Below are positions 14,261 to 30,910 of a stretch of DNA of 64,000 bases, piece by piece (the first letter of the stretch is position 1; every line of letters starts with the position of its first letter). The DNA lies in assembly GCA_900540835.1 (NCBI GenBank), contig UQHN01000004.1, forward strand, positions 165-64,164, read 5' to 3'. The notes beneath the pieces are model-generated. The model saw nothing but the letters and a program-made list of their open reading frames with translations, made no database searches and was not told where the DNA came from. The position numbers were made by a program, and so were the translations under genes. This DNA comes from an uncultured Collinsella sp. (GTDB lineage Bacteria > Actinomycetota > Coriobacteriia > Coriobacteriales > Coriobacteriaceae).

Positions 14261-14482
14261 GGCGCCGCGCCGGTCATTTCCTTTTATCCGATTGTCATAT
14301 GCTCGTTGCCGAAACTTTTACTATGATAGTGGGCACTTGTGAACGTGTCAAAGCCAGCGCGGGCGGCATTGCGCCTCCTGCCTGCGTATTTGCGCCGATT
14401 GCTGCCGCAGGCGCCGTGTTTTGCCCGCTGCGCGAATGGCGGCGTAAACGGTTGCGATGAGAAACGGGAAGGGAAGGCTCGG

Positions 14483-15274
14483 ATGATTCATATCGTTGGC
14501 GCAGGCTCTGGCGCCGCCGACCTTATCACGCTGCGCGGGGCGCGCCTTCTGCACGCGGCCGACGTGGTCGTTTGGGCGGGGAGCCTTGTGAACCCCGAGC
14601 TGCTCGCTGAGTGCAAGGAATCCTGCATCGTCTACGACAGCGCGCACATGACCTTGGAGGAAGTGCTCGACGTGATGTGCGCGGCAGATGCGCGGGGCGA
14701 GGAAGTGGTGCGCCTGCACACGGGCGACCCGTGCCTGTACGGCGCCATCCAGGAGCAGATGGACGCGCTCGACGCGCGCGGCGTGGACTACGAGGTGGTG
14801 CCCGGCGTGTCGAGCTTTTGCGGTGCCGCGGCGGCGCTTCGCCAGGAATACACGCTGCCGGGAATCAGCCAGTCGGTCGTGATCACGCGGCTTTCCGGGC
14901 GCACCCCCATGCCTGCGGGCGAGGGCATGCGCACCATGGCGGAAAGCGGCTCGACTATGGTCATCTTCCTGAGCTCGGGTATGCTCGCCGAGCTTTCCGC
15001 CGAGCTTTTGGCCGCGGGCCGCAGCTCCGACGAGCCGGCGGCGCTCGTGTATAAGGCGACCTGGCCTGAGGAGCGCGTGGTGCGATGCACAGTGGGCACG
15101 CTCGCCGATGCGGGCGCGCGAGAGGGCATCGACCGCACGGCGCTCGTGGTGGTGGGCCGCGTGCTCGGAGCTCGCGGCGGGCTTGCGCACGACGGCGCGC
15201 AAGCGGAGTCGTACGAGCGCAGCAAGCTTTACGACCCTTCGTTTGCCACGGGGTATCGGAAGGCGAGCAGCTAG
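14483..15274 (+). CDS. cbiF: Cobalt-precorrin-4 C11-methyltransferase
   Basis: Tetrapyrrole methylase with IHIVGAGSGAADLITLRGARLL and GDPCLYG motifs; start MIHIVGAG. Confidence 0.9.
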   Translation: MIHIVGAGSGAADLITLRGARLLHAADVVVWAGSLVNPELLAECKESCIVYDSAHMTLEEVLDVMCAADARGEEVVRLHTGDPCLYGAIQEQMDALDARGVDYEVVPGVSSFCGAAAALRQEYTLPGISQSVVITRLSGRTPMPAGEGMRTMAESGSTMVIFLSSGMLAELSAELLAAGRSSDEPAALVYKATWPEERVVRCTVGTLADAGAREGIDRTALVVVGRVLGARGGLAHDGAQAESYERSKLYDPSFATGYRKASS

Positions 15275-15275
15275 C

Positions 15276-16460
15276 GTGGCCTTCGAGCACTACATATATA
15301 CCGGGACGACCCGCCTGCGCTGCGGCTACACCACGGGGAGCTGCGCCGCTCTCGCGGCGAAGGCGGCCTGCGAGATGCTCTTGTCACGAAAGACCGTGGG
15401 CCGCGTGTCGATCGTCACCCCCGGCGGGCTGCCCGTCGAGACGGACGTGGTCGACGTATGCATCGGCGAGGGGTGCGCCCAGTGCGCCGTGCGAAAGGAC
15501 GCAGGCGACGATGCCGATGTGACCGACGGCGTGCTCGTGTACGCGCTCGTGGAACATGCGGGGCCGGGCACGGGCGCTGCGGGCAGCAAGGGCGTGCCCG
15601 CGCGCGAATCGGAAGTTTCCGTCGATGGCGGCGTGGGCGTGGGGCGCGTGACGTTGCCCGGGCTTGAGCAGCCGGTGGGGGCGGCCGCCATCAACGCGAC
15701 GCCGCGCGCGATGATCACTTCGGCGGTGCGCGAGGTGTGCGCCGCGCACGGCTTTTCTGGAAATATTGCTGTGACGATTTCGGTACCCGAGGGTGTTGCC
15801 CTTGCCGAAAAGACCTTCAACCCGCACCTGGGGATAGAGGACGGCATCTCCATCCTGGGTACGACGGGCATCGTCGAGCCGCGCAGCCTCGCTGCCTTGC
15901 GCGACAGCATCGAGCTCGAGATCCGGCAGCATGCGGCTATGGGGCGGCGCGGAGTCGTGCTCACGCCCGGCAACTACGGCGGGCAGTTCATCTCGGGGCA
16001 TTTCCACCTAAACGGTGCGCCGGTGGTCTTCATCTCCAACTTTGTGGGCGATGCGATTGATTGCTGCGTTCGCGAGGGATTTACCAATGTCCTTCTTGTG
16101 GGACACATCGGCAAGCTAGTGAAGGTCGCGGGCGGCATCATGGACACCCATTCGCGTACCGCCGACTGCCGCGCGGAGATTCTGGCCGCCCACGCGGCCT
16201 TGGCCGGCGCGGGCGCGAAGACCGTGCACGAGATCATGTCGTCGGTCACGACCACGACGGCGCTTGAGGTAATCGAGGCCGCCGGCGTGGGGGACGCTGT
16301 GCGCGCCTCGCTCGCTGCGGCAATCGAGGACAGGTTGCGCCGCCGCGCGGCGGGCGCATGCGACATCGCCGCGGTCGTGTTCGACGCCGGGCGCCGCGAG
16401 CTTTTCCGCACGTCGGGCGCCGATGCTGTTATCGGGGAATTGGGGGCGACGTATGAGTAA
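15276..16460 (+). CDS. cbiD: Cobalt-precorrin-5B C1-methyltransferase
   Basis: Conserved LRCGYTTGSCAALAAKAA N-terminal motif. GTG start lies immediately after the cbiF stop; the ORF track opens further upstream at 15108. Confidence 0.85.
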   Translation: MAFEHYIYTGTTRLRCGYTTGSCAALAAKAACEMLLSRKTVGRVSIVTPGGLPVETDVVDVCIGEGCAQCAVRKDAGDDADVTDGVLVYALVEHAGPGTGAAGSKGVPARESEVSVDGGVGVGRVTLPGLEQPVGAAAINATPRAMITSAVREVCAAHGFSGNIAVTISVPEGVALAEKTFNPHLGIEDGISILGTTGIVEPRSLAALRDSIELEIRQHAAMGRRGVVLTPGNYGGQFISGHFHLNGAPVVFISNFVGDAIDCCVREGFTNVLLVGHIGKLVKVAGGIMDTHSRTADCRAEILAAHAALAGAGAKTVHEIMSSVTTTTALEVIEAAGVGDAVRASLAAAIEDRLRRRAAGACDIAAVVFDAGRRELFRTSGADAVIGELGATYE

Positions 16461-17142
16461 AGGCGTGCTGTACGGGGTGGGCACGGGGCCTGGCGACCCC
16501 GAGCTGCTCACGATCAAGGCCGTCCGCACAATCGAATCGTGTCCGGTCATCGCCGCACCGCAAACGGCGGACGGGGTCATGGTCGCGCTTGACATTGTGC
16601 GCGGCGCCGTCGACCTTACAGGCAAGACGGTGATCCCCGTGCGATTCTCGATGACGCGCGACGCCGAGCGCCGCGCGGCCGAGCATGCCTCGCTTGTTCG
16701 CGAGCTTGTCGCGCACCTGGATGCGGCCCGCGACGTCGCGCTGCTGAACCTGGGGGACCCAAGCATCTACGCCACCTTCCAGCGCATAGCGCCCGACGTG
16801 CGCGCCCGCGGGTTCGAGGCGCGCGCCATTCCCGGCGTGCCGAGCTTCTGCGCGGTCGCCGCGGCGCTCGAGCGCGACCTCACGCCCGAGATGTCGTCGC
16901 CTCTGCACATCGTGCCCGGCGGCTACGATGACGTTCGCCGCGCAATCGGCTGGCCGGGGACGAAGGTGGTCATGAAGGCGCGCCGCTCGCTTGCGGACAC
17001 GAAGCGCATCCTTCGCGAGGAGGGCGCCTTCGACGGTGCCGAGCTCGTAGAGGACTGTGGGCTTCCGGGCGAGCGCGTGTACCGCTCGCTCGACGATGTG
17101 CCCGATCGGGGCAGCTACTTCTCGACGATGGTGGTGCGCTAG
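16453..17142 (+). CDS. cbiL: Cobalt-factor II / precorrin-2 C20-methyltransferase
   Basis: MSKGVLYGVGTGPGDPELLT tetrapyrrole-methylase N-terminus; overlaps the cbiD stop. Confidence 0.85.
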   Translation: MSKGVLYGVGTGPGDPELLTIKAVRTIESCPVIAAPQTADGVMVALDIVRGAVDLTGKTVIPVRFSMTRDAERRAAEHASLVRELVAHLDAARDVALLNLGDPSIYATFQRIAPDVRARGFEARAIPGVPSFCAVAAALERDLTPEMSSPLHIVPGGYDDVRRAIGWPGTKVVMKARRSLADTKRILREEGAFDGAELVEDCGLPGERVYRSLDDVPDRGSYFSTMVVR

Positions 17143-18276
17143 ATGAGGGTTTCCTGCATAGCGTTCACTGAGAGGGGGTATGCGTTGGCGGAGCGCACCG
17201 CACGCGCGCTTTCCGATTGCGCGCAGACAGGTGAAGATGACTCTGGCTGGAACGTTTCCGTTTCGCGCGGGTTCGGCGAGGGGAAGGCCGACCTGCGCGC
17301 ATGGACGGCGCTCGCGTGGGAAGCGTCGGACGCGCTTCTGTTCGTGGGCGCGGCGGGCATCGCCGTGCGGGCGATCGCGCCGCATGTCGCCTCGAAGGCA
17401 AACGATTCCGCGGTTGTGGTGATCGACGAGGCGGGGCGCTTTGCCGTCTCGCTTTTGTCGGGGCATTTGGGCGGTGCGAACGAGCTTGCGCAAACTGTGG
17501 CACGCGCGGCAGGGGCCATCCCCGTCATCACCACGGCGACCGACGTCCGCGGCGTGTGGGCGGTGGATACGTGGGCGCGCTGTGCTGGGCTCGCCGTTTC
17601 GAATCCCGAGGCTATCAAGCGAGTGTCGGCGCGGCTGCTTTCGGGCGGGCGCGTGGCGCTCTATTCCGACATGCCGATTTCGGGACAGCCGCCTGAGGGG
17701 GTTGACATTGCGTCCGACCGCGCTCGGGCCGATATCGTCGTGTCGCCGTTCGCTGGCGCGAATGCAGGTGCGTCCGTTCGCGCGGCGGAGACAACGGGCG
17801 AGGTCGTGCCCGCCGGTGTGACGGGGAAGCCGGCGGGCGTGCGGGCGCAGGCGCCTGCGCCCGAGCCGCTTCACCTTGTCTTACCCTGCATCGTTGCGGG
17901 CATAGGGTGCCGTCGCGGTGCGTGCACCGAAGCGATCGGGGAGGCGTTTCTTCTCGCGTGCGGGCAGGCGGGCATCTCGCCTTCGGCCGTGCGCGAGGCG
18001 GCGACGATCGACGTTAAGGCGCGCGAGGAGGGTCTGCTCGCCTTCTGCCACGCGCGCAGTATCCCGCTCGCGACGTATTCCGCAGAGGAGTTGTCGCAGG
18101 TCGAAGGCAGCGTTTCGCCATCTGATTTCGTGCGCGCGACGGTGGGGGTCGACAACGTGTGCGAGCGCGCGGCGCTCGCGGGCGGGGGCAAACTTTTCTT
18201 CCCGAAGCTCGCTCACGGCGGCGTGACCGTCGCGTTTTCCAAGGTAACTATCGAACTTTCGTTTAAGGAGCGGTGA
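17143..18276 (+). CDS. cbiG: Cobalt-precorrin-5A hydrolase
   Basis: CbiG N-, middle and C-terminal (CobE-like) regions: LVLPCIVAGIGCRRG...IDVKAREEGLLAFCHARSIPLATYSAEEL. Confidence 0.85.
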   Translation: MRVSCIAFTERGYALAERTARALSDCAQTGEDDSGWNVSVSRGFGEGKADLRAWTALAWEASDALLFVGAAGIAVRAIAPHVASKANDSAVVVIDEAGRFAVSLLSGHLGGANELAQTVARAAGAIPVITTATDVRGVWAVDTWARCAGLAVSNPEAIKRVSARLLSGGRVALYSDMPISGQPPEGVDIASDRARADIVVSPFAGANAGASVRAAETTGEVVPAGVTGKPAGVRAQAPAPEPLHLVLPCIVAGIGCRRGACTEAIGEAFLLACGQAGISPSAVREAATIDVKAREEGLLAFCHARSIPLATYSAEELSQVEGSVSPSDFVRATVGVDNVCERAALAGGGKLFFPKLAHGGVTVAFSKVTIELSFKER

Positions 18277-19019
18277 TGGGAAAGCTCTTCGTGGTGGGGA
18301 TTGGCCCGGGCGGCCCCGACGGCATGACGATTGCGGCTCGGCGCGCGCTCGAGGCGGCCGACATCGTTGTGGGGTACACGAAATACGTGGAGCTCGCGCT
18401 CGCCGCCGTGCCCGACGCGGCGCATCTCGCGACGCCGATGATGCACGAGGTCGAACGGTGCCGCCTGGCGCTTTCGCGCGCGCAGAGCGGAGAAGCCGTG
18501 GCGCTCGTGTGCAGCGGTGACGCGGGCGTGTACGGCATGGCGAGCCCCGTGCTGGAGCTTGCGGAGGACTACCCCGATGTAGACGTGGAAGTTATCGCCG
18601 GGGCCACCGCGGCTCAGAGCGGGTCGGCGGTGCTCGGCGCCCCGCTTGCCCACGATTTCGCGGTCGTGTCGCTCTCTGACCTGCTCACGCCGTGGGAGGT
18701 CATCGAGCGCAGGCTCGCCGCCGTGGCGAGCGCCGACTTCTGCATCTGTTTGTACAACCCGCGCAGCAGAAAGCGCGCCGACAGGCTCTCGCGCGCGGCG
18801 AAGATTATGCTCGAATGGAAGGCCCCCGACACGCTCTGCGGCTGGGTGCGCAATATCGGGCGCGAGGGGCAGCAGTCGGGTATGTGCAGGCTCTCCGAGC
18901 TGGGGGAGTTCGATGCAGACATGTTCACCACCGTGTTCGTCGGCAACGCGGACACGAAGCGCGTAGGCGGCCGTATGGTCACGCCGCGCGGGTATCGGGA
19001 GATTCCATGCGAAAGGTAA
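18273..19019 (+). CDS. cbiH: Cobalt-precorrin-3B C17-methyltransferase
   Basis: LFVVGIGPGGPDGMTIAARRALEAADIVVGY methylase motif. Confidence 0.9.
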   Translation: MMGKLFVVGIGPGGPDGMTIAARRALEAADIVVGYTKYVELALAAVPDAAHLATPMMHEVERCRLALSRAQSGEAVALVCSGDAGVYGMASPVLELAEDYPDVDVEVIAGATAAQSGSAVLGAPLAHDFAVVSLSDLLTPWEVIERRLAAVASADFCICLYNPRSRKRADRLSRAAKIMLEWKAPDTLCGWVRNIGREGQQSGMCRLSELGEFDADMFTTVFVGNADTKRVGGRMVTPRGYREIPCER

Positions 19020-20479
19020 CGATCATCGGGGCGGGGCCCGGAAACCCCGACTTGCTCTCGCGCGCGGCGCTCGACGCGATCGACATCGCCGACGTGGTCA
19101 TCGGCGCTCATCGCGCACTTGTCGGCATCGACGTGCCGCCCGACGTGGTGAGATGCGAGCTCGTTAAGACGGCGGACATCGTCGCCGCGCTCACCGATGC
19201 GGCGTCGTGGCAGCGCGCCGTGGTCGTGATGACGGGCGATGTGGGGCTGTTCAGCGGCGCGCGCCGCCTGGTGGAGGCGCTCTCCGGCGACGCGCAGGTG
19301 GACGTGCGCGTCATTCCCGGCATAAGCTCAGCGTCGTATCTCGCCGCGCGCCTCGCGCGTCCATGGCAGGATTGGCGCTTCGTGAGCGCTCACGGCGTGG
19401 CGTGCGACATCGTGGCCGAGGCCGAGCGCGCAGGTGAGCTCTTCCTCGCCACGTCGGGCGGGGAAGACCCCTCGCGGCTTTCGGGCGAGCTTGTGCAGGC
19501 GGGCTTCGAGGACGCGCGCGTGACGGTGGCCGAGCGCCTGTCGTACCCCGACGAGCGCATCACCTGCGCGACCGCAAGTGAAATCGCAGGTCAGACGTTC
19601 GACGACTTGAACGTGATGCTTATCGAGTTCGCAGGCTGCGCCGGGTCGCCTGCGAACTCTAGTGCAGCCTCCGAGGCGCCGGCTGGCGCATCTGCGCCCG
19701 CGGCGGCTTCTTTCGTGGCGGACTCTGCGGGCGCATTCCACGCCGCGAGCCCCCGCTGGCCGTACGCTTCCTCGGGCATTCCCGACGAGCTCTTCATCCG
19801 CGGCGACGTTCCCATGACCAAGCAGGAGGTGCGCGCCGTCGCGCTCGCGAAGCTGCGCCTTACCGCGACCGACACCGTGTGGGATGTCGGCGCCGGCACG
19901 GGGAGCGTGTCGATCGAGGCGGCGCTCGTCGCGCGAGCGGGGTCGGTATGGGCGGTCGAGCGCAACGCGGCCGGCGTGCGGCTCATCCGAGAGAACGCGG
20001 ATGCATTCGGGTGCGGCAACGTGCATGCGGTCCCCGGTGTCGCCCCCGAAGCGCTCGCGAAACTGCCCGACCCCGACGCCGTGTTCGTCGGCGGGAGCGC
20101 GGGCGAGCTTCCCTCCATCGTGGAGGCGGCGCTCGAGAAGAACTCGCAGGTTCGCCTGTGCGTGCCATGCGTCACCGTTGAGACGCTCACCGAGGCGTGC
20201 GCGCTCCTCTCGGGTTCGCGCTTTAAGGAGTTCGAGGCGTGCCAGGTGTCGGCCGCCCGTGCCGAGGCTGTAGGCTCGCACCATCTTATGAAGGCGCAAA
20301 ACCCCGTGTTCCTCGTCAGCGCGCGTGGTGCGGGCGCGGATGCCGAGGAGCTTGCCGAAGTCGGCGCGCTTGCTGAGTCGCCTGTCGGGGAGGACCTCTC
20401 TGTCGAGGGGAACCCATCCGTTGAGGTGGTCTCGCTTGCTAACTGCAGCGCCGCAGGTGGGGAAGGCGGCGCCCGGTGA
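19007..20479 (+). CDS. cbiET: Cobalt-precorrin-6B/7 methyltransferase fusion CbiE::CbiT (CobL-like)
   Basis: N-terminal VTIIGAGPGNPDLL (CbiE) is joined by an Ala/Ser-rich linker to CbiT (VWDVGAGTGSVSIEAAL), with a low-complexity C-tail. ATG 19007 overlaps the cbiH stop. Confidence 0.85.
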   Translation: MRKVTIIGAGPGNPDLLSRAALDAIDIADVVIGAHRALVGIDVPPDVVRCELVKTADIVAALTDAASWQRAVVVMTGDVGLFSGARRLVEALSGDAQVDVRVIPGISSASYLAARLARPWQDWRFVSAHGVACDIVAEAERAGELFLATSGGEDPSRLSGELVQAGFEDARVTVAERLSYPDERITCATASEIAGQTFDDLNVMLIEFAGCAGSPANSSAASEAPAGASAPAAASFVADSAGAFHAASPRWPYASSGIPDELFIRGDVPMTKQEVRAVALAKLRLTATDTVWDVGAGTGSVSIEAALVARAGSVWAVERNAAGVRLIRENADAFGCGNVHAVPGVAPEALAKLPDPDAVFVGGSAGELPSIVEAALEKNSQVRLCVPCVTVETLTEACALLSGSRFKEFEACQVSAARAEAVGSHHLMKAQNPVFLVSARGAGADAEELAEVGALAESPVGEDLSVEGNPSVEVVSLANCSAAGGEGGAR

Positions 20480-21858
20480 GCACGTCCATCCCGCGCTTCA
20501 TGGTCGCTGCGCCCTCGAGCGGGAGCGGCAAGACGGTCGTAACGTGCGCGCTCCTGCGCGCGCTCGCGCACCGCGGCATTGCATGTGCGGCCTTCAAATG
20601 CGGCCCCGACTACATTGACCCGCTCTTTCATCGCCGCGTCGTGGGTGCGCGCTCGGGCAATTTAGACGGCTTCTTCACCGACGCCCCGACGCTGCGCGCC
20701 CTGCTCGCACGCGGCGCCGCGGGCGCGGATGTCGCGGTGCTCGAGGGGGTTATGGGCTTCTACGACGGCATGGCGCCCGGCGTGGCCGACGCGAGCAGCT
20801 ACCAGGTTGCGCGCGACACGGAAACGCCGGTCGTTTTAGTGGTGAACGGGCGCGGGGCGTCTTTATCGCTCGCCGCTGTAATCCACGGCATCGCCGAGTT
20901 CCTGCCTTGTGCGAACGTGCGCGGCGTCGTGCTGAACAAGACGAGCGCCGCTGCCTGCGCCTACGCGGCGCCTGCGATCGAGAAGCACACGGGCGTCGCG
21001 GTTTTGGGGAATATCCCCGCCGACGAGGCGTTCTCGCTCGAAAGCCGGCATCTGGGGCTTGTGACCGCCGACGAGGTCGAGCAGCTCTCCGCGCGCATCG
21101 ACAAGATGGCCGAGCTGGTGGAAAAGAGCATCGACGTCGACCGCTTGCTCGAAATAGCGGCGACGGCACCCGATATCCGCGAGGAACCTTACCGGTTGGA
21201 GCCGATCGCGGGAGCGCGGCCCATCGTCGCCGTCGCGCGTGACGAGGCGTTCTCGTTCTACTACGAGGAGAATCTGCGCGCGCTCGAGGACCTGGGTTGC
21301 GAGCTGGCCTTTTTCAGCCCCCTGTGTGATGGCGAGTTGCCCCGGGGGACAAGCGCCCTCTATCTGGGGGGCGGCTACCCGGAGCTCCATGCGCGGCAGC
21401 TCTCCGAGAACGTGTCGATGCGCGGGGCGGTGCGGCGCGCTGTGGAATCCGGCATGCCGACGGTCGCCGAATGCGGTGGGTTTCTGTACCTGCAGCGCGA
21501 AATCGCCGATAGCGAGGGGTGGCGCTGGCCTGTTGCGGGCGCCCTTGAGGGCGCAAGCGAGAACGGGGGAAGGCTGTCCCATTTCGGGTACGTGGAGCTC
21601 ACTTCCCAACGCGACGGGCTCTACGGGCCGCGCGGCACACGCATCCGCGCGCACGAGTTCCACTACTGGCAGTCCACCTGCCCGGGCGGCGACTTTTGGG
21701 CGCAGAAGCCCCGGCGCGACAAGGGCTGGCCGTGCATGACGACCACCCCGTCCCTGGTGGCGGGCTTCCCGCATGTGTACTATCCTGCGAACCCCGACGT
21801 TGCGCGCGCGTTCGCGTCTGCCGCAGCGTCGTTCACAGAGAGGAGGCGGCATGGCTGA
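20476..21858 (+). CDS. cbiA: Cobyrinate a,c-diamide synthase
   Basis: P-loop VAAPSSGSGKTVVTCALLRAL, a DPLFH motif and a C-terminal glutamine amidotransferase region. GTG 20476 overlaps the upstream stop. Confidence 0.9.
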   Translation: MSTSIPRFMVAAPSSGSGKTVVTCALLRALAHRGIACAAFKCGPDYIDPLFHRRVVGARSGNLDGFFTDAPTLRALLARGAAGADVAVLEGVMGFYDGMAPGVADASSYQVARDTETPVVLVVNGRGASLSLAAVIHGIAEFLPCANVRGVVLNKTSAAACAYAAPAIEKHTGVAVLGNIPADEAFSLESRHLGLVTADEVEQLSARIDKMAELVEKSIDVDRLLEIAATAPDIREEPYRLEPIAGARPIVAVARDEAFSFYYEENLRALEDLGCELAFFSPLCDGELPRGTSALYLGGGYPELHARQLSENVSMRGAVRRAVESGMPTVAECGGFLYLQREIADSEGWRWPVAGALEGASENGGRLSHFGYVELTSQRDGLYGPRGTRIRAHEFHYWQSTCPGGDFWAQKPRRDKGWPCMTTTPSLVAGFPHVYYPANPDVARAFASAAASFTERRRHG

Positions 21859-22993: not shown

Positions 22994-23538
22994 CGGTGAC
23001 GCTCGTCATCGGCGCCGCCGCGAGCGGCAAGAGCGCCTACGCCGAGTCCCTGTGCCTCGGGCACGACGGCCCTCGCGTGTACCTGGCAACGATGGAGCCC
23101 TTCGGGGAAGAGGGCGCCCGCCGCATCGCGCGCCATCGGGCGCTGCGCGAGGGCAAGGGGTTTTCCACCCTCGAGCGAACGCGTGACGTGGGCGCCGCAG
23201 TGCCCGGGCTTCCGCGCGGCTGCACGCTTCTTTTGGAGGACGTGGGCAACCTGGTTGCGAACGAGCTTTTCGCGGAAGGCGGCTTGTCCCCACGTGACCC
23301 CGACGCTGCGGCGCGCGAGGTGCTCGGAGGCATTGAACGGCTCGCTCAGGCCGCTGCGTATACGGTGGTGGTCACCGTCGACGTGTTCGCCGATGAGATG
23401 CGCTACGATGAGGGGACCGAGGCATGGAGGCGCGCGCTCGCGCGCGTGAACGCGGGCGTGGCGGCGCTGGCCGACCGCGCAGTCGAAGTGGTATGCGGGA
23501 TTCCCGTGTGGATGAAAGGTGAAGGACCTACAAGGTGA
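22990..23538 (+). CDS. cobU: Adenosylcobinamide kinase / adenosylcobinamide-phosphate guanylyltransferase
   Basis: P-loop VIGAAASGKSAYAE; 182 aa, the typical CobU size. Confidence 0.85.
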   Translation: MTVTLVIGAAASGKSAYAESLCLGHDGPRVYLATMEPFGEEGARRIARHRALREGKGFSTLERTRDVGAAVPGLPRGCTLLLEDVGNLVANELFAEGGLSPRDPDAAAREVLGGIERLAQAAAYTVVVTVDVFADEMRYDEGTEAWRRALARVNAGVAALADRAVEVVCGIPVWMKGEGPTR

Positions 23539-24302
23539 AGATAGCAGAGGCAATCGGCGCGGCGTTCGGAACGTTCTCGCGCATCCCCGTCCCGAAATCG
23601 GCCTGGACCGATTTCGGGTCAACCCATGCGCTTGCCGCGTTTCCCCTGGTGGGCCTTGCGGAAGGGTTCCTCATGACGGCGTGGGGACACGTTGCGAACC
23701 TGCTCGGCGTGCCCGCGACCATCGTCGCGGCCGTGCTCGTGGCGCTGCCTGTAGCGGTGACGGGAGGCATCCACCTAGACGGGCTCTGCGACACCTCCGA
23801 TGCGCTTGCAAGTTGGGCCCCGCGCGAGCGAAAGCTCGAGATCATGCACGACCCGCGGGCGGGCGCCTTCGGGGTCATCGGTGTTGTTGTGTACCTTATT
23901 CTGCAGTTTTCCCTGTTCACCGCGCTGCCGCTTACGGCGGGGGCGTTCCTCGCGCTTCTGTGCTCGCTCGTGTTCTCCCGCGCGCTTTCGGGACTCGCCG
24001 TTGAATGCTGGCCTGCCGCGCGGGCGGACGGCATGGCCGCGGGGCTCTCGCCTGCGAAGAAGCGCGCGGCGATCGTCGTGCCGCTTTGCGCTTTCGCTGC
24101 GGCTTCGGCTGCAGGGATGGTCGCGTGCGCTCAGGCTGTCGGCGCCCTTATGGCGGTGGCGGGGCTTTTGGCGCTCGCGTGGTACCGCCATGTTGCCCTG
24201 TCCCGCTTCGGCGGGGTGACGGGGGATTTGGCCGGATGGTTTCTGCAATGGGCCGAGCTCGCGATGCTTGCCATGCTGGTGGCGGGGGGCATGCTCCTAT
24301 GA
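23535..24302 (+). CDS. cobS: Adenosylcobinamide-GDP ribazoletransferase (cobalamin synthase)
   Basis: Polytopic membrane protein; the N-terminus FGTFSRIPVP and DGLCDTSDAL motif are typical of CobS. Confidence 0.85.
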   Translation: MKIAEAIGAAFGTFSRIPVPKSAWTDFGSTHALAAFPLVGLAEGFLMTAWGHVANLLGVPATIVAAVLVALPVAVTGGIHLDGLCDTSDALASWAPRERKLEIMHDPRAGAFGVIGVVVYLILQFSLFTALPLTAGAFLALLCSLVFSRALSGLAVECWPAARADGMAAGLSPAKKRAAIVVPLCAFAAASAAGMVACAQAVGALMAVAGLLALAWYRHVALSRFGGVTGDLAGWFLQWAELAMLAMLVAGGMLL

Positions 24303-25300
24303 TGCTCGTGGTAGGTGGCGCGCATTCGGGGAAGAGGACCTTCGTGCGTGAAAAGCTCGGGTTCGCGGCGGACGATTTCGTCGACGCGGCGCAGCTTGCG
24401 GAGGGCGGCGTGCCCGCGGCTTTTGCCGGCCGCGTCGCATACCGTGCTGAGGAACTCGTACGCGCGCTCGACGCTGACCGGGCGCTCGAGCGGCTGATCG
24501 GCTTCGACGCAGTGATTCTGCCCTTGGTCGGCTCGGGGGTCGTCCCCATGCGTGCGGAAGACGCCCAATGGCGCGAGCGCGCGGGGCGCCTGGGATGCGC
24601 GCTCGCTGCGCGCGCCGACGTCGTCGTGCGCATGACGTGCGGGATTCCCCAGGTCATCAAAGGAAACCTTGCCGATGCGCCTCGAGGGACGCAGGGCGCG
24701 GGTGCGCCTTTGGAAGTCGTCTTCGTGCGCCATGGTGCCACGGCGGGCACGGAAGACCATCGCTACAGCGGGGCGGGCACCGACGAGCCCCTGTCGATTG
24801 CGGGCGAGCGCGCTTTGCGCGACCTCGCGTGCGATCGTGACGTGTTCCGTGTTATCACGAGCGGCATGGTCCGCACCGACCAGACGGCGCGCATCCTCTT
24901 CCCGAATGCGGAGCTTATGGCGTGCCCCGGTCTGCGCGAGATGGATTTCGGCGACTTCGAGGGGCGAAGCGCCGCCGAGCTTAAAGAGGATGCGCGCTAT
25001 CGCGCCTGGGTAGACTCCTGGTGCGAGACGCGCTGCCCGCATGGCGAGGACAAGAGCGATTTCACCCGCCGCGTCGTCGCGGCGTTTCGGGAGGCGTGCA
25101 AATCGGAGCGCGCCCAGGGGAGCGGGCGCGCCGTCTTCGTCGTTCACGCGGGTACCGTGAAAGCGCTGCTCTCCGAGCTAGCTGTCCCGAAAATGGGATA
25201 CTTCGACGTGCATACCGAGCCGGGCGGCGCATGGGCCGCCACTTGGGATGGGCGCTGCCTTCGCGACGTTCGCCCCGCTTCGGGGGGCGATGCCCGGTGA
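24299..25300 (+). CDS. cobC: Fusion of a truncated CobU-like P-loop domain with alpha-ribazole-5'-phosphate phosphatase (CobC, histidine phosphatase family)
   Basis: The N-terminal ~130 aa (VVGGAHSGKRTFV ... RMTCGIPQVIKGN) align to the full CobU encoded upstream. The C-terminal half has the RHG motif (VVFVRHGATAGT) of the phosphoglycerate-mutase-like family. Confidence 0.75.
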   Translation: MMLVVGGAHSGKRTFVREKLGFAADDFVDAAQLAEGGVPAAFAGRVAYRAEELVRALDADRALERLIGFDAVILPLVGSGVVPMRAEDAQWRERAGRLGCALAARADVVVRMTCGIPQVIKGNLADAPRGTQGAGAPLEVVFVRHGATAGTEDHRYSGAGTDEPLSIAGERALRDLACDRDVFRVITSGMVRTDQTARILFPNAELMACPGLREMDFGDFEGRSAAELKEDARYRAWVDSWCETRCPHGEDKSDFTRRVVAAFREACKSERAQGSGRAVFVVHAGTVKALLSELAVPKMGYFDVHTEPGGAWAATWDGRCLRDVRPASGGDAR

Positions 25301-26274
25301 TGACGATTCTTGCCATCGCCGCCGGGTTCGCGGCCGACCTTGCCTTCGGCGACCCGCGCTGGCTTCCCCATCCCGTCGTCGCCATGGGGCGCGCGATCAC
25401 GTGGGCCGAAGGCCGCCTGCGGGGCGCATTCCCGCAAACGTCCGCGGGTACGCGCGCCGCAGGGCTTGTGCTCGCCGTGGCGCTTCCGCTTGCGTGTGGG
25501 CTTTTGACCTGGGGAATCCTGCATCTTTGCGGCATGGTTCACTCCGGCTTGCGCTTCGTGGCCGAGGCATGGGCGAGCTATCAGATTCTCGCGGCATGCG
25601 AGCTGCGCCGCCAGAGCCTGGCCGTTGCCCGCGCGTTCTCGAAGGGCGGACTTGTCGCGGCGCGCGAAGCCGTCGGGCTCATCGTGGGACGTGACACGTC
25701 TGTTCTCGACGAGCAGGGTGTCGCGCGCGCCGCCGTGGAAACGGTGGCGGAGAACGCGAGCGACGGTGTCATCGCGCCGCTTTTCTACCTTATGATTGGG
25801 GGTGCGCCCTTGGGCATGGCGTACAAGGCGGTGAACACGCTCGACAGCATGGTGGGCTACAAAAACGAGCGCTACATCGACTTCGGCTGCGCCTCGGCGC
25901 GCCTCGACGATGCGGTGAACTGGATTCCCTCGCGGTTATCGGCCCTGTTCATGATCGCCGTGTGCCCGATCGTCGGGCTCGACGCGCGCGGGGCGGCGCG
26001 CATCTGGCGCCGCGACAGGCGTCGCCATGCGAGCCCGAACGCGGCGCAGACCGAGTCGGCGTGCGCGGGTGCGCTCGGACTGCGCCTGGCAGGACCCGCG
26101 GTGTATTTCGGTAAGCTCGTTGAGAAACCGACGATAGGCGACGCGTCCCGCGAAATCGAGTGGGGCGACATCGCCCGGGCGACAAGGCTCATGCTCGCCG
26201 CGTCCGTATGCGCGCTCGTCGTCTTCGGCGCCGCGCGTGCGGCGGTCGTACTCGCCGTGGGGGCGATGGCATGA
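25300..26274 (+). CDS. cbiB: Adenosylcobinamide-phosphate synthase
   Basis: Membrane protein beginning MTILAIAAGFAADLAFGDPRWLPHPV, the canonical CbiB/CobD N-terminus. Confidence 0.85.
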   Translation: MTILAIAAGFAADLAFGDPRWLPHPVVAMGRAITWAEGRLRGAFPQTSAGTRAAGLVLAVALPLACGLLTWGILHLCGMVHSGLRFVAEAWASYQILAACELRRQSLAVARAFSKGGLVAAREAVGLIVGRDTSVLDEQGVARAAVETVAENASDGVIAPLFYLMIGGAPLGMAYKAVNTLDSMVGYKNERYIDFGCASARLDDAVNWIPSRLSALFMIAVCPIVGLDARGAARIWRRDRRRHASPNAAQTESACAGALGLRLAGPAVYFGKLVEKPTIGDASREIEWGDIARATRLMLAASVCALVVFGAARAAVVLAVGAMA

Positions 26275-27494
26275 GGAAAGACCACGCCGCGCCCCGGGCT
26301 GCCGGGGGAATCCTGCGCGCCCGCACGCATGGGGGCAGCGCGCAATCGCTCGGCATCGCTTGCGAAGGGGGTGCCTCCGACCTCATTGACTTCTCGGTGA
26401 ACGTGAATCCGGCAGGCCCCTCGCCGCGCGCCGTCGCCGCAGCTTGCAAGGCGCTTTCTCGAATCGACGCCTACCCCGATAGGGAAAGCCTCGCCCTCGT
26501 TCGCGCGCTAGCGCGCGACCAGGGCATTCCCGAAGATACTATCGTCTGCGGCGCGGGCGCGTCCGACATCATCTGGCGGCTCGCAGCGGCGGTGCGCCCG
26601 AAACGCATCGTCGTGTGCGCGCCGACGTTCTCTGAATATGCTGAGGCGGCATCGTACTACGGCGCATGCGTGCAGGAGTTCCCGCTCTCTGAAGCGGACG
26701 ACTTCGACGTGCCCGCCTCCTTCGCCCGCGCGATCGAGGGGCCGGGAGACGTGGCGTACCTCTGCAATCCGAACAACCCGACGGGGCGCCTCGTCGACCC
26801 CAGCGTGATCGAGGCCGCGGCTTGCCGCTGCGAGCAGGTGGGCGCGCTGCTTGTCGTGGACGAGTGCTTCCTCGGATTTGCGCCCGACGCCCGCGAAAGG
26901 AGCGTGGCCGCACGCGCCGCGTGTTCGCGCCATGTGGCCGTGCTCTCCGCGTTCACCAAGCTCTACGGAATGGCGGGGTTGCGGTTGGGATATCTGATCA
27001 GCGGAAACGCCCAACTCATCGAGGGGATTCGCCGGGCGGGGCAGGCGTGGCCCGTCTCCTCGGTCGCCGAGGCCGCGGGCATCGCCGCCCTGGAAGACGT
27101 TGAATACGTCTCGCGCACGCGCGACGTATTGGCGGGCGAGCGAGCGTGGCTTTCCCACGAGCTCTCCTCGCTCGGGCTTTCCGTCGTGCCGTCGGATACG
27201 AACTTCCTTTTAGTCCGCACGCCGGCGAAAGACATCCCCGAGCGCCTGTATAATCAGGGTGTTTTGGTCCGCACGTGCGACTCGTTTTCGGTACTGTCCC
27301 GTTTCTGGTGCCGCGTCGCGGTGCGCACGCACAGGGAGAACGCCCGGCTTGCGATGGCGTTCAGCCGCGCGCTTCGGGCGGAAGGTGCATCGGGCGAAGG
27401 CGAACCCGACGAACGGGGCGGCGCTTCTTGCGGCGGCGCTATGGCGGGCGCGGATGGCCGAGGCTCGGCGAAGGAGGTCGATACCCGTGGGTAG
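26271..27494 (+). CDS. cobD: L-threonine-O-3-phosphate decarboxylase (class I/II aminotransferase fold)
   Basis: PLP aminotransferase-like, with IDFSVNVNPAGPSP and SAFTKLYGMAGLRLGY (lysine-PLP region); carries an acidic low-complexity C-tail. Confidence 0.8.
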   Translation: MRKDHAAPRAAGGILRARTHGGSAQSLGIACEGGASDLIDFSVNVNPAGPSPRAVAAACKALSRIDAYPDRESLALVRALARDQGIPEDTIVCGAGASDIIWRLAAAVRPKRIVVCAPTFSEYAEAASYYGACVQEFPLSEADDFDVPASFARAIEGPGDVAYLCNPNNPTGRLVDPSVIEAAACRCEQVGALLVVDECFLGFAPDARERSVAARAACSRHVAVLSAFTKLYGMAGLRLGYLISGNAQLIEGIRRAGQAWPVSSVAEAAGIAALEDVEYVSRTRDVLAGERAWLSHELSSLGLSVVPSDTNFLLVRTPAKDIPERLYNQGVLVRTCDSFSVLSRFWCRVAVRTHRENARLAMAFSRALRAEGASGEGEPDERGGASCGGAMAGADGRGSAKEVDTRG

Positions 27495-28986
27495 GGCCAA
27501 GCCCATCATGATCCAGGGCACCATGTCGAACGCGGGGAAGAGCCTGCTTGCGGCTGGGCTGTGCCGCGTACTTTCGCAGGACGGCTTGCGCGTGACTCCC
27601 TTCAAGAGCCAGAACATGGCACTCAACAGTGGTGTCACGGCCGACGGGCTCGAGATGGGGCGCGCCCAGATCATGCAGGCCGAGGCGTGCGGCATCGCGC
27701 CCGACGTGCGCATGAACCCCATCCTGCTCAAGCCCGAAAGCGGCCACCGAAGCCAGCTCATCGTGGCCGGCAAGGCGCAGGGAGCCTTCGCTGCGAGGGA
27801 CTACTTCGCGCGAAAGAAGGCGCTCATGCCGCAGATTCTGGAGGCGTTCGATTCGCTCGCGGAGGAAAACGACGTCATCGTCATCGAGGGCGCCGGCAGC
27901 CCCGCCGAAATCAACCTTGCCGAAAACGACATCGTCAACATGGGGCTCGCGCGCGCCGTGTCCTCCCCCGTGCTGCTTGCGGGCGACATCGACCCGGGCG
28001 GGGTATTTGCCCAGCTCTACGGCACGGTCGCGCTCCTTGCGCCCGAGGACCGCGCGCTTTTGCGGGGGCTTATGGTGAACAAGTTCCGCGGCGATGTGGA
28101 AATCCTGCGCCCGGGTTTGGCCCCGCTCGAGAAGATGTGCGGGGTTCCCGTCGTGGGGGTCGTGCCGTATCTTACGCTCGACCTGGACGACGAGGACTCG
28201 CTCGCGCCGCGCCTATCTGCCCGCGAGGCGCGCGGCGTCATCGACGTCGCCGTCGTGCGTCTTCCGCATCTGTCGAACTTCACCGACTTCGACCCGCTTT
28301 CGCGCGTGCCCGGCGTGGGCGTGCGCTACGTTTCCTCGACGACCGATCTGGGCCGACCCGACCTGGTGGTGCTTCCCGGCTCGAAGACCACGCTCGACGA
28401 CGCGCGCTGGCTTGCGGCTAGCGGCATCGGGGCCTGTGTACGCGCGCTTTCGGGCGCGGGCACGCCGGTGCTCGGCATATGCGGTGGCTACCAGCTTTTG
28501 GGAGACGAGCTTTCCGACCCGCACGGCAGGGAAGGCGCTGGCACCGCGCGCGGGCTCGGGCTCATCCCTGCAAGTACGGTGTTCAAGGAGGAAAAGCGCC
28601 TCGCCCAGTCGGCACTGCGCATCACGGGCGCCCAAGGCGCGTTCTCGGTGTGGAACGGCATGACGGCGCGCGGGTACGAGATTCACGACGGCGAAACGAC
28701 CGTCTCCTGCGCCCCTGTGGGCACGATTGGCGGCAAACCAGAAGGCGCGGCCTGCGGAAACGTGTTCGGAACCTATCTCCACGGCCTGTTCGACGAACCG
28801 GGGGTTGCGCTCGCCCTCGCGCGCTCGCTCGCGCGCATGCGCGGCCTGCCCGAGAGCGTCGTGGGTGCTGCGGGCGCGGCGTCCGCGGCCGATCACCGTG
28901 CGCGCGAGTTTGACCGCCTGGCCGACGTCGTGCGCGGGGCGCTCGACATGGAGTATGTCTACCGCATTATCGAGGAGGGCGTATGA
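27487..28986 (+). CDS. cobQ: Cobyric acid synthase
   Basis: IMIQGTMSNAGKSLLAAGLCRVL P-loop plus a C-terminal GATase domain. The start is GTG 27487 or ATG 27508. Confidence 0.85.
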   Translation: MGRAKPIMIQGTMSNAGKSLLAAGLCRVLSQDGLRVTPFKSQNMALNSGVTADGLEMGRAQIMQAEACGIAPDVRMNPILLKPESGHRSQLIVAGKAQGAFAARDYFARKKALMPQILEAFDSLAEENDVIVIEGAGSPAEINLAENDIVNMGLARAVSSPVLLAGDIDPGGVFAQLYGTVALLAPEDRALLRGLMVNKFRGDVEILRPGLAPLEKMCGVPVVGVVPYLTLDLDDEDSLAPRLSAREARGVIDVAVVRLPHLSNFTDFDPLSRVPGVGVRYVSSTTDLGRPDLVVLPGSKTTLDDARWLAASGIGACVRALSGAGTPVLGICGGYQLLGDELSDPHGREGAGTARGLGLIPASTVFKEEKRLAQSALRITGAQGAFSVWNGMTARGYEIHDGETTVSCAPVGTIGGKPEGAACGNVFGTYLHGLFDEPGVALALARSLARMRGLPESVVGAAGAASAADHRAREFDRLADVVRGALDMEYVYRIIEEGV

Positions 28987-29498
28987 TCCACGTGTATCAT
29001 GGCGACGGCAAAGGCAAGACCACGGCGGCGATGGGCCTCGCCCTTCGCATGCTCGCTGCAGGCCGCCGCGTCGTCGTCGTGCAGTTCCTGAAAGACGGCG
29101 AAAGCGGGGAGGTGCGCCTGCTCGCTGAGCATTTCGGCGTGCCCGTGTTCGCGGGGAAGGCGTCGGACAAGTTTACCTGGTCGATGACGTCGGAAGAACT
29201 TGCCGCGACGTGCGAGCTGCACGATGGGAACCTCGCTTCCGCGCTCGCCGAGCTCGAGGGCGCGCAAGAGGGACTGCTCGTGCTCGACGAGGCGCTCGAC
29301 GCGCTTTCGAAGGGGCTTGTCGACGAGGCGCTCGTGGACCGCGCGCTCGATATGTCCGCGCGCGGCGTCGAAGTAGCGCTCACCGGGCGCGCGCCTTCCC
29401 GCAAGATCGTGGAGAAGGCCGACTACATAACCGAGATGCGGTGCGAGAAACACCCCTACTCTCAGGGGATATGTGCAAGGGAAGGAGTGGAGTACTAG
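28983..29498 (+). CDS. cobO: Cob(I)yrinic acid a,c-diamide adenosyltransferase
   Basis: MIHVYHGDGKGKTTAAMGLALR P-loop, typical of the CobA/CobO/BtuR family. Confidence 0.85.
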   Translation: MIHVYHGDGKGKTTAAMGLALRMLAAGRRVVVVQFLKDGESGEVRLLAEHFGVPVFAGKASDKFTWSMTSEELAATCELHDGNLASALAELEGAQEGLLVLDEALDALSKGLVDEALVDRALDMSARGVEVALTGRAPSRKIVEKADYITEMRCEKHPYSQGICAREGVEY

Positions 29499-30140
29499 AT
29501 GGATTCCAAGGAGATGGCGCCCGGCGACATCGAGCGGCGCAGCTTCGAGATCATCACCGAAGAGCTCGGCGGCCGCACGTTCCTGCCGCTCGAAGAGCCC
29601 GTCGTGAAGCGCGTCATCCACACCACTGCCGACTTCTCGTACGCCGATTCTCTCGTGTTCACCCATGACGCCGCGCACTGTGCGCTCGACGCACTGCGCG
29701 CAGGGGCCACGGTGCTCACCGACACGAACATGGCGCTCGCAGGCATAAGCAAGCCCGCGCTCGCGAAGCTCGGCTGCAAGGCCGTGTGCTTCATGGCCGA
29801 CCCTGATGTCGCCGCGGCTGCGCGCGCCGCGGGCACGACTCGCGCCGTTGCGAGCATGGACAAAGCTTGCGGCATCGAGGGTCCGCTCATCGTGGCCGTC
29901 GGCAACGCTCCCACAGCACTTCTGCGCCTCGCCGAGCTCATGGACGTGGGGAAGATCGCGCCCGCGCTCGTCGTTGGGGTGCCGGTCGGGTTTGTGAACG
30001 TGGTCGAGGCGAAAGAGGAGCTACTCGCGCGACGCGTGCCGGCCATCGTCGCGAGGGGTCGCAAGGGCGGCTCGACCGTGGCGGCTGCCATTATGAACGC
30101 GCTGCTCTACCAGATCACGCGCCCAGGCGGCCCGAAGTGA
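29499..30140 (+). CDS. cbiC: Cobalt-precorrin-8 methylmutase
   Basis: VIHTTADFSYADSL motif of CbiC/CobH; RBS ggaaggag. Confidence 0.85.
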   Translation: MDSKEMAPGDIERRSFEIITEELGGRTFLPLEEPVVKRVIHTTADFSYADSLVFTHDAAHCALDALRAGATVLTDTNMALAGISKPALAKLGCKAVCFMADPDVAAAARAAGTTRAVASMDKACGIEGPLIVAVGNAPTALLRLAELMDVGKIAPALVVGVPVGFVNVVEAKEELLARRVPAIVARGRKGGSTVAAAIMNALLYQITRPGGPK

Positions 30141-30910
30141 CGGCGCCCGCATCCGCGCCGGCGCTGCGCATCTTCGCCGGCACCACCGAGGGCCGCCTTC
30201 TGTGCGAATGGGTGAGCGGGGCGGGCATCCCCGCCCGTGCCTACGCGGCAACCGAGTACGGAGGCGAGCTTTTGGGCGAGCTTCCGGGCATCGAGGTGCA
30301 TGCGGGCAGGCTCGACGAGGCCGACATGGAGTGCGAGCTTTCTGGCGCGCGCATCGTCGTCGACGCCACGCACCCCTTCGCTACGCTCGCAAGCGGCAAC
30401 ATCCGGGCCGCTTCGCTCGCCGTGGGTGCACAATGCCTGCGCCTTGCGCGCCCGGTCGAGGCGCTGCCCAAAGGCGTCGTCTCGGTCGCGTCGATCGCCT
30501 GCGCGGCGCGCTTTCTCTCCGAGAACCCGGGTCGCGCGCTTCTCACGACGGGGAGCAAGGAGCTTGCTCCCTACACGCGCGTCGCCGATTTCGCGGAGCG
30601 CTTCTTCGTGCGTGTGCTCCCGCTGCCCGGTGCTATAACGAAGTGCATCGACGCGGGGTTTTCGCCATCGCACGTCATCGGCATGCAGGGGCCCTTCACC
30701 CGCGAGCTCAACGAGGCGATGCTTCGGCAGGTGGGCGCCCAGTGGCTTGTGACCAAGGACTCGGGAACCGTAGGCGGCACGGCCGAGAAGATCGCCTCCG
30801 CGCGCGGCGTGGGAGCGCGCTGCATCGTGGTCGCCCGTCCCGCCGAGGGAGGCGGGGCCCTTTCGCTTCGGGAAGTGGAAGACGCGCTCTTACGGGAGTT
30901 CGCGCGCTAG
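30137..30910 (+). CDS. cbiJ: Cobalt-precorrin-6A reductase
   Basis: CbiJ/CobK-like (LRIFAGTTEGR ... IVVDATHPFA). GTG start overlaps the cbiC stop. Confidence 0.8.
   Translation: MTAPASAPALRIFAGTTEGRLLCEWVSGAGIPARAYAATEYGGELLGELPGIEVHAGRLDEADMECELSGARIVVDATHPFATLASGNIRAASLAVGAQCLRLARPVEALPKGVVSVASIACAARFLSENPGRALLTTGSKELAPYTRVADFAERFFVRVLPLPGAITKCIDAGFSPSHVIGMQGPFTRELNEAMLRQVGAQWLVTKDSGTVGGTAEKIASARGVGARCIVVARPAEGGGALSLREVEDALLREFAR

Follow-up and report, generated by a model that had tools for sequence, protein, structure and literature searches.

The 64,000-nucleotide stretch analysed here (the window), from an uncultured Collinsella sp., carries a 17-gene operon for the anaerobic synthesis of cobalamin (vitamin B12). 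Divergent from it lies an uptake operon whose first gene encodes a homologue of the cobalt chelatase CbiK with an export signal. The pathway is intact from its first encoded cytoplasmic step, CbiL, down to the cofactor, and the genes for the steps before CbiL are missing. It seems rather probable that this intact but truncated pathway is functional and works on imported intermediates, cobalt being inserted outside the cytoplasm or its insertion being bypassed. The genes, their integrity, the export signals, the synteny and the purifying selection were established here; the absence of the early genes and the need for B12 are taken from the literature.

The cobalamin operon

Open reading frames (ORFs) were identified with NCBIfam equivalog or subfamily models and with Pfam, every long ORF of the window being scanned. 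The start codons within the operon are those of the public gene calls on identical contigs, and loci identical to the window occur in many gut metagenomes as well as in the NCBI assembly GCA_027671585.1. Exact matches to the window's proteins carry the names unclassified Collinsella and Collinsella aerofaciens group, from the human gut. The operon occupies positions 14483-30910 of the forward strand, and each of its 17 genes is a single intact ORF. Strong NCBIfam and Pfam matches confirm the order that an earlier note on this DNA had given, all in one direction:

14483-15274, forward strand: cbiF, cobalt-precorrin-4 C11-methyltransferase, 263 amino acids (TIGR01465, 309.6 bits); the best SUMT-like cross-match of the window (see below)
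15276-16460, forward strand: cbiD, cobalt-precorrin-5B C1-methyltransferase, 394 amino acids, GTG start (TIGR00312, 387.6 bits)
16453-17142, forward strand: cbiL, cobalt-factor II / precorrin-2 C20-methyltransferase, 229 amino acids, intact here (TIGR01467, 185.8 bits); the first cytoplasmic step encoded
17143-18276, forward strand: cbiG, cobalt-precorrin-5A hydrolase, 377 amino acids (NF004466, 246 bits; CbiG_N, CbiG_mid and CbiG_C domains)
18276-19019, forward strand: cbiH, C17-methyltransferase / ring contraction, 247 amino acids (TIGR01466, 294.1 bits)
19007-20479, forward strand: cbiET fusion, 490 amino acids (CbiE, TIGR02467, residues 6-204, 131.4 bits; CbiT, TIGR02469, residues 269-378, 118 bits)
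20500-21858, forward strand: cbiA/cobB, cobyrinic acid a,c-diamide synthase, 452 amino acids (NF002204, 447.2 bits)
21851-22993, forward strand: cobT, nicotinate mononucleotide:dimethylbenzimidazole phosphoribosyltransferase, 380 amino acids (NF000996, 316.4 bits)
22990-23538, forward strand: cobU, cobinamide kinase / guanylyltransferase, 182 amino acids (Pfam CobU, 98.3 bits; NF004469, 78 bits)
23535-24302, forward strand: cobS, cobalamin synthase, 255 amino acids (NCBIfam, 111.2-131 bits; TIGR00317, 111.2 bits for a cut-off of 110)
24299-25300, forward strand: cobC, alpha-ribazole phosphatase, 333 amino acids (NCBIfam, 94.9 bits; His_Phos_1 at residues 140-295)
25300-26274, forward strand: cbiB, adenosylcobinamide-phosphate synthase, 324 amino acids (NCBIfam, 208.5-247 bits; TIGR00380, 208.5 bits)
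26271-27494, forward strand: cobD, threonine-phosphate decarboxylase, 407 amino acids (TIGR01140, 285 bits)
27508-28986, forward strand: cobQ/cbiP, cobyric acid synthase, 492 amino acids (NF001989, 598.7 bits)
28983-29498, forward strand: cobO/cobA(btuR), corrinoid adenosyltransferase, 171 amino acids (TIGR00708, 120.9 bits)
29499-30140, forward strand: cbiC, cobalt-precorrin-8 methylmutase, 213 amino acids, without a fused chelatase domain (NF006137, 224.5 bits, full length)
30137-30910, forward strand: cbiJ, cobalt-precorrin-6A reductase, 257 amino acids (TIGR00715, 155.2 bits)

The presence of CbiD and CbiG, together with the lack of any match to the CobG, CobF and CobN families on the ORFs of the window, characterizes the anaerobic type of pathway, with early cobalt insertion. 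With steps assigned from established pathway knowledge, the gene set spans every oxygen-independent step from cobalt-sirohydrochlorin, the substrate of CbiL, to adenosylcobalamin.

The genes are tightly packed, all 16 junctions lying within 20 nt. The statement that almost every junction has a 1-4 nt overlap goes too far, since only eight of the 16 do: the overlaps are of 1 nt (two junctions), 4 nt (six), 8 nt (two) and 13 nt (one), and the gaps of 0 nt (two), 1 nt, 13 nt and 20 nt (one each). Alternative GTG starts would turn the two largest gaps into overlaps of 4 nt (CbiA) and 8 nt (CobQ), bringing the 1-4 nt class to 9/16. From such packing, it is reasonable to expect that translation of the genes would be coupled.

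Two proteins of the operon have extended or variable ends. CobC carries an N-terminal extension of 130 amino acids (window 24299-24700, the N-terminal 134 residues), found in all public copies, each of 333 amino acids. Scanned by itself, the segment of residues 76-119 scores 31.8 bits against the C-terminal end of CobU (Pfam PF02283). A past duplication or fusion of cobU may have left this extension behind. Beyond the CbiT domain, about half of the Collinsella loci have other or divergent sequence in place of the last 45 or so codons of CbiET (window 20341-20479), and the protein is 433 amino acids long in Collinsella tanakaei, compared with 490 in the window.

The missing early steps

Among the long ORFs of the window, the family scans gave no match for uroporphyrinogen-III methyltransferase (SUMT), precorrin-2 dehydrogenase, the hem genes or a CbiK or CbiX devoid of signal peptide. 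SUMT and the SirC-type dehydrogenase were also sought by a six-frame tblastn of the window with Escherichia coli CysG: the SirC-like N-terminal domain had no match with E < 0.07, and the SUMT domain only cross-matched CbiF (85 bits, 28% identity), CbiH, CbiE and CbiL. The absence of CbiK/CbiX, SUMT and precorrin-2 dehydrogenase claimed in the earlier note is thus confirmed twice for the 64 kb. The missing genes are absent also from about 80 related loci with their 10-kb flanks. These come from a survey of CbiK loci with one genome per GTDB species (at least 80 loci), in which CbiK is 98-100% identical and the labels read Collinsella or Coriobacteriaceae, with one exception labelled Ellagibacter. 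Collinsella aerofaciens ATCC 25986 (L054) is among them, its CbiK being 99% identical to that of the window.

Disguised forms of the missing enzymes were considered and rejected. A methyltransferase of the operon acting as SUMT is not supported, CbiF scoring 309.6 bits on the CbiF model and 157 on the SUMT model (cut-off 185). No chelatase domain is fused to CbiC, CbiG, CbiET or the longer CobC, whose extra segment is CobU-like. Another matter is a second, cytoplasmic CbiK paralogue. None appeared among the homologues listed for the window CbiK, which are all orthologues of at least 55% identity, or among the survey loci, which near-identical orthologues fill because the genus is divided into very many species; a distant paralogue would escape both listings.

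The early genes could of course lie elsewhere in the chromosome, as in an ordinary split pathway, where SUMT, precorrin-2 dehydrogenase and a cytoplasmic CbiK or CbiX would be encoded apart and B12 made de novo. This layout is common in other bacteria, the cysG gene of Salmonella enterica lying outside the cbi-cob operon, and our own searches covered the window and related loci rather than a whole Collinsella genome. C. aerofaciens has also been scored as a B12 producer (Magnusdottir et al. 2015), but this score stems from criteria that begin at precorrin-2. Genome-wide data point the other way. In Supplementary Table 10 of Shelton et al. (2019, ISME J, PMC6461909), C. aerofaciens ATCC 25986, Collinsella sp. 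4_8_47FAA and C. tanakaei YIT 12063 are classified as tetrapyrrole precursor salvagers of the "precorrin-2" type. Annotation and BLASTP found no 5-aminolevulinic acid (ALA) synthesis, HemB, HemC, HemD or SUMT in these three genomes. The best Collinsella match to a CobA-HemD query has 85.9 bits in the same table, close to the 85 bits of the CysG/CbiF cross-match. Presumably, then, no protein encoded in the genome is more SUMT-like than CbiF itself. Rodionov et al. (2019) give C. aerofaciens as needing B12 in culture despite its B12 genes (supplement entry "RG, Goodman et al. 2009"), which they attribute to missing precorrin-2 genes and which makes it a precorrin-2 auxotroph. This auxotroph or salvager reading was repeated in a 2021 review. 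With the early genes also absent from the window and the related loci, we give a split pathway very little chance.

The earlier note had left a choice between genes encoded elsewhere and salvage, and had proposed a search for SUMT in the rest of the genome. For SUMT and the steps upstream, the first option is contradicted by the published genome-wide searches of the species complex, which report none (Shelton et al. 2019), so that the pathway is truncated rather than split; the second is the published reading. Since published work finds the early genes absent genus-wide, the truncated pathway could work only on an imported modified tetrapyrrole. A truncated pathway without its own precursor has, in this sense, already been published for this species complex. 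The precorrin-2 salvagers of Shelton et al. belong to the same genus and have essentially the same locus, with complete corrin-ring and nucleotide-loop genes and nothing for the steps from ALA to precorrin-2. In contrast to the present work, the location of the chelatase was not considered there, cbiK being counted as present, and only ALA salvagers, not the precorrin-2 type, were validated experimentally.

The exported CbiK and its uptake operon

The cbiK gene is the first of an operon divergent from the cbi operon, with four more genes following on the reverse strand:

13098-14024, reverse strand: exported CbiK homologue, 308 amino acids (Pfam CbiK, 265 bits), with a twin-arginine translocation (TAT) motif SRRGFMG, a lipobox LAGC, a serine-rich linker and a complete CbiK domain
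12418-12951, reverse strand: lipoprotein with a Sec-type signal, 177 amino acids, predicted NEAT-like beta-sandwich (AlphaFold and Foldseek)
10842-12413, reverse strand: lipoprotein, 523 amino acids, N-terminal beta-sandwich followed by a Peripla_BP_2 substrate-binding domain (PF01497, 108 bits, residues 245-488)
9797-10837, reverse strand: FecCD/BtuC-like permease (PF01032, 273 bits; best NCBIfam match BtuC, 209.6 bits)
8480-9796, reverse strand: ATP-binding cassette (ABC) ATPase with a C-terminal extension (best NCBIfam match "corrinoid ABC transporter ATPase", NF007082, 249 bits)

For the export signals, the sequence was read by eye. The CbiK N-terminus, MSDQMSRRGFMGAAATGAVALAGVALAGCS, shows a twin-arginine motif and then a lipobox; written as MSDQMSRRGFMGAAATGAVALAGVALAGCSNTSASSEKSSEK, it displays the twin-arginine motif, a hydrophobic stretch, the lipobox cysteine and a serine-rich linker. 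This is the signature of a Gram-positive lipoprotein predicted to be exported by the TAT route, and the claim that the only CbiK homologue within the 64 kb carries an export signal is borne out by the motif and lipobox at 13098-14024 (reverse strand). Every CbiK orthologue examined keeps the export signal, and at 65-88% identity none departs from R7, R8 or C29. The start is best placed at the ATG of position 14024, in line with both the public gene calls and the sequence, a longer ORF from 14111 remaining unused. A cytoplasmic isoform arising from an internal start was also considered: there is no in-frame ATG, GTG or TTG between codons 11 and 97, which makes a cytoplasmic isoform with the whole domain impossible.

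The chelatase site itself looks complete. The closest structures in the Protein Data Bank (PDB) are those of S. enterica CbiK (1QGO, 4e-44), Porphyromonas gingivalis FetB (9B86, 6e-38) and Desulfovibrio vulgaris CbiK(P) (2XVX, 3.5e-33). H192, E223 and H255 align with the metal-binding and catalytic H145, E175 and H207 of the S. enterica enzyme and are invariant in eight orthologues. No description of the location of the Collinsella chelatase was found in the literature searched.

In a Coriobacteriia protein, P0191, the NEAT-like domain is fused to the C-terminus of CbiK.

The 177-residue lipoprotein belongs to a small family (229 homologues). Twenty of these went into its AlphaFold model, whose confident core has a predicted local distance difference test score above 90 for 98 residues. 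Matches of this core in the PDB, as found by Foldseek, are almost only NEAT haem-binding domains (IsdX1, IsdA, IsdH-N3, IsdC, Hal), with a probability of 1.0 and target-normalised template modelling scores of 0.5-0.6; by sequence, similarity to Pfam NEAT does not reach significance (E 0.17). In Firmicute NEAT-like proteins, a second domain is homologous to the N-terminal domain of the 523-residue Collinsella binding protein. On the basis of these models, the uptake operon looks like a relay of the Isd type, in which surface proteins that bind tetrapyrroles would pass them to a BtuFCD-like importer.

The leader of the cbiK operon

Three elements precede cbiK, in the order expected of a riboswitch leader:

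14323-14351, reverse strand: sigma-70-like promoter, TTGACA-17-TATCAT (11 of 12 consensus matches)
14157-14284, reverse strand: degenerate short-P6 cobalamin-riboswitch-like aptamer (RF00174, 15.2 bits, E 0.11-0.19)
14096-14118, reverse strand: terminator-like hairpin and T-run, a putative expression platform read from the sequence, between the aptamer and the cbiK start

At gathering thresholds, Rfam finds no riboswitch anywhere in the window, the match coming from a relaxed search only. The P4-L4-P5 core aligns well and the B12 box in part, within an overall weak match to RF00174. By itself, a 15.2-bit match is no evidence, but the scores of relatives and the low diversity of the leader support the riboswitch reading. 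At the same position, the leaders of C. tanakaei and of another Coriobacteriaceae contig reach 27.6 and 30.5 bits, respectively, and the riboswitches of homologous Oscillospirales-like Firmicute operons 100-103 bits. Diversity in the aptamer is 0.0095 per site among about 78 Collinsella loci and, at 14090-14156, 0.002 per site among 76 loci; synonymous diversity of the genes flanking the leader is 0.03-0.05, which makes the leader 4-20 times less variable. The cbiK leader is thus probably a functional, diverged cobalamin riboswitch. No riboswitch was found upstream of cbiF.

An exact 14-nt direct repeat, AAGCCAGCGCGGGC, lies at 14241-14254 and 14351-14364 and has no other copy in the 64 kb. 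Both copies stand in the divergent cbiK/cbiF intergenic region, one antisense to an aptamer stem and the other abutting the cbiK -35 box in the cbiF leader. An operator function is possible, as is pairing between the two leaders.

The module in relatives

C. tanakaei (CbiK 66% identical) and another Coriobacteriaceae contig (CbiK 69% identical) share the divergent layout, in which cbiK and the genes for the NEAT-like lipoprotein and the substrate-binding protein point one way and the genes from cbiF-cbiD-cbiL-cbiG-cbiH onward point the other. Outside the family, the closest CbiK homologues among the matches listed have 55% identity and Sec-type lipoprotein signals; one belongs to a metagenome-assembled genome annotated as Faecousia sp. 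(Oscillospirales), organism labels of metagenomic contigs being used here as given in their records. These homologues sit in operons made up of a riboswitch, cbiK, a NEAT-like protein, a substrate-binding protein, a FecCD permease and an ATPase. In three Oscillospirales-like gut metagenome contigs (L090, L092 and L093), the module even runs on into cbiD-cbiF-cbiG-cbiH-cbiJ-cbiET-cbiA with stop/start overlaps, the L090 riboswitch scoring 100 bits. No cbiL is found within the visible 10 kb of these three fused operons, and a metagenome-contig scan for the downstream half of the fused operon gave no relative. The Collinsella locus is a Gram-positive member of a recurring set that combines an exported CbiK with a corrinoid-type importer under apparent B12 control.

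Comparison with known systems

The cbi-cob operon of S. enterica encodes the same enzymes from CbiL on, and its CbiK (1QGO) is the structure most similar to the window CbiK. The S. enterica enzyme has no signal peptide, and CysG supplies precorrin-2 or sirohydrochlorin. Collinsella differs on both counts, its CbiK carrying an export signal and a CysG-type supply being absent.

The Isd relay of Firmicutes (IsdX1, IsdA, IsdC, then IsdE-IsdF) likewise places NEAT-fold surface lipoproteins beside a Peripla_BP_2/FecCD importer. In Collinsella, by contrast, NEAT is not significant by sequence, regulation is apparently by B12 rather than iron, and the transporter is closest to BtuC/BtuD.

P. gingivalis offers a parallel to an exported chelatase in an incomplete pathway. 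The classic case of an organism with cbi genes that does not make precorrin-2 (Roper et al. 2000, as cited by others), it is a precorrin-2 auxotroph too. The protein most similar to CbiK in this species is a surface lipoprotein, IhtB/FetB. It is encoded in the TonB/ABC uptake operon ihtABCDE, whose first product is the BtuB homologue IhtA and which follows a riboswitch shown experimentally to respond to coenzyme B12. Collinsella departs from it in being Gram-positive and devoid of a TonB receptor, in its NEAT-like lipoproteins and TAT signal, and in the uptake operon adjoining the cbi operon. FetB has been interpreted in terms of haem, iron or Mn-porphyrin metabolism, unlike the B12 reading proposed here.

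In Desulfovibrio, a B12 element precedes cbiK-cbiL-btuCDF-like genes, and the CbiK(P) of D. vulgaris (Lobo 2008, Romao 2011 and Lobo 2017, as cited by others) is exported with an intact chelatase site, as is the window CbiK. Unlike Collinsella, D. vulgaris has all the early steps, as well as a second CbiK, CbiK(C), in the cytoplasm.

These systems raise the question of whether the exported CbiK has anything to do with B12. It could serve haem or iron acquisition, by removing iron from host or dietary porphyrins or inserting other metals into them, its adjacency to the cbi genes being coincidental. The NEAT-like fold of the neighbouring lipoprotein and a weak IsdE-like match of the substrate-binding protein fit such a role. 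So do the Co and Mn chelatase activity of FetB in vitro on a porphyrin analogue and the greatly reduced Mn-protoporphyrin production of a fetB deletion. D. vulgaris CbiK(P) also binds haem, through His96 and His103, but these haem-bridging residues are not kept in the window CbiK, where Ala and Asp replace them. The module is moreover preceded by cobalamin riboswitches, strong in Oscillospirales, near threshold in the two Coriobacteriaceae relatives and B12-responsive in P. gingivalis, and it is linked to cbi genes in two phyla. No iron-regulator site turned up, though no search was aimed at one. Taken together, a role unrelated to B12 looks very unlikely.

Deletion of cbiL and selection on the ring genes

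The cbiL gene, intact in the window, is not intact throughout the genus. Over the 66 species-representative loci covering cbiL, 28 (L032, L034, L035, L038, L041 and L054 among them) have the same 453-bp in-frame deletion at about 16483-16935 of the window, which removes 151 of the 229 codons and leaves a 78-residue remnant (MSKGVLYGV|RRAIGWPG...). C. aerofaciens ATCC 25986 is one of them and differs in this from the window. Locus L074 has a second, different deletion of 274 bp (window 16594-16867), not a multiple of three.

The record of L074 is Ellagibacter isourolithinifaciens DSM 104140 contig_010. Its locus is of Collinsella type, with a CbiK 98% identical, and looks like assembly contamination or a recent transfer.

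These deletions give a reason to suspect a relic. Once the early genes had gone, the ring genes from cbiL to cbiC would have lost their function. Only the late ones (cobQ, cbiB, cobD, cobU, cobS, cobT, cobC, cobO and perhaps cbiA) would still serve, to salvage and remodel corrinoids such as cobyrinate, cobyric acid or cobinamide imported through the neighbouring transporter. The independent deletion in L074, the need of ATCC 25986 for B12, the similarity of the transporter subunits to BtuC and to a corrinoid ABC ATPase, and the modules that stand alone in some Firmicute contigs all suit this view. Selection on the remaining genes does not. The pooled pairwise ratio of non-synonymous to synonymous polymorphism (pN/pS) is 0.10-0.13 for CbiF, 0.12-0.14 for CbiH, 0.25 for CbiD, 0.35 for CbiG and 0.26 for intact CbiL. 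Over CbiF, D, G, H and ET it spans 0.10-0.36 and is equal in the cbiL-deleted and cbiL-intact groups. Synonymous diversity inside the deleted group is about 0.055, which, together with the unchanged pN/pS, indicates that the deletion is old and that the other ring genes have been constrained since. All ring genes are also intact in the window and in C. tanakaei, the CbiK of the latter being 66% identical. A relic thus appears rather unlikely, while keeping some weight.

Three explanations of this constraint in the absence of a full CbiL are possible: the entry point may lie after CbiL in the deleted lineages, another enzyme may stand in for CbiL, or recombination may blur the measure of selection.

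How the truncated pathway may work

Under the reading preferred here, a functional truncated pathway fed from outside, the cell would import from the gut a modified tetrapyrrole at the level of precorrin-2/sirohydrochlorin or a later intermediate. Either the surface CbiK would insert cobalt before import, or the imported compound would already hold cobalt; CbiL, acting on cobalt-sirohydrochlorin or cobalt-precorrin-2, and the following enzymes would then finish the cofactor in the cytoplasm. Metallation at the surface, taken as a specific mechanism, is considered rather unlikely. When B12 is plentiful, the leader would shut the uptake operon off. We infer that the uptake operon would deliver the substrate of the pathway, which the exported CbiK would metallate or capture.

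Several points weigh against this reading. The loss of most of cbiL in 28 of 66 loci, ATCC 25986 included, implies that a large part of the genus can do without the early ring steps. In L008, L091 and L094, the module occurs without cbi genes within 10 kb, and with such stand-alone modules a general corrinoid or porphyrin uptake fits as well as precursor feeding; together with the porphyrin or haem reading of FetB, they leave room for another role. The aptamer match of 15.2 bits compares with an RF00174 gathering score of 31.5. The search for chelatases covers the window and the listed homologues, and a second, cytoplasmic CbiX or CbiK elsewhere in the genome is possible. Finally, we know of no documented gut source of sirohydrochlorin or precorrin-2.

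Neighbouring genes

The rest of the window is of housekeeping type: phosphotransferase system enzyme I, PfkB kinases, CCA-adding enzyme, MetK, GltX, PriA, Def, Fmt, RsmB, glycogen metabolism genes and a MacB-type exporter. The latter (31142-34553, reverse strand), made up of a MacB-type permease, an ABC ATPase and an HlyD-like adaptor, lies directly downstream of the cob operon and convergent with it. A similar MacB/FtsX and adaptor set adjoins the exported-CbiK module in an unrelated Firmicute contig (L094, 3728-9398). The presence of such sets beside both loci may be a coincidence or reflect a linked exporter.

Implications

What this analysis adds to the literature is the predicted extracytoplasmic location of the only chelatase found in Collinsella, the NEAT-like proteins that accompany it and the polymorphism of cbiL; this is no new kind of system. 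A more general proposal can be put forward, although we consider it speculative and would not expect it to hold in full: exported CbiK, NEAT-like lipoproteins and a BtuFCD-like importer might form a B12-repressed entry module for corrin synthesis in several phyla. It would capture a metal-free isobacteriochlorin (sirohydrochlorin or a relative) at the surface, insert cobalt outside the cytoplasm and import the resulting cobalt-tetrapyrrole, which would enter the pathway at or after CbiL. If true, this entry module would replace the cobalt transporter and the cytoplasmic chelatase in precorrin-2-less Collinsella, some Oscillospirales and P. gingivalis. It would also account for the retention of cbi genes in these organisms, a long-standing "enigma".

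The locus calls for caution in scoring such genomes as B12 producers. It also makes testable what these abundant gut bacteria salvage and how cobalt enters the molecule, and the natural strains with intact and deleted cbiL allow a direct comparison.

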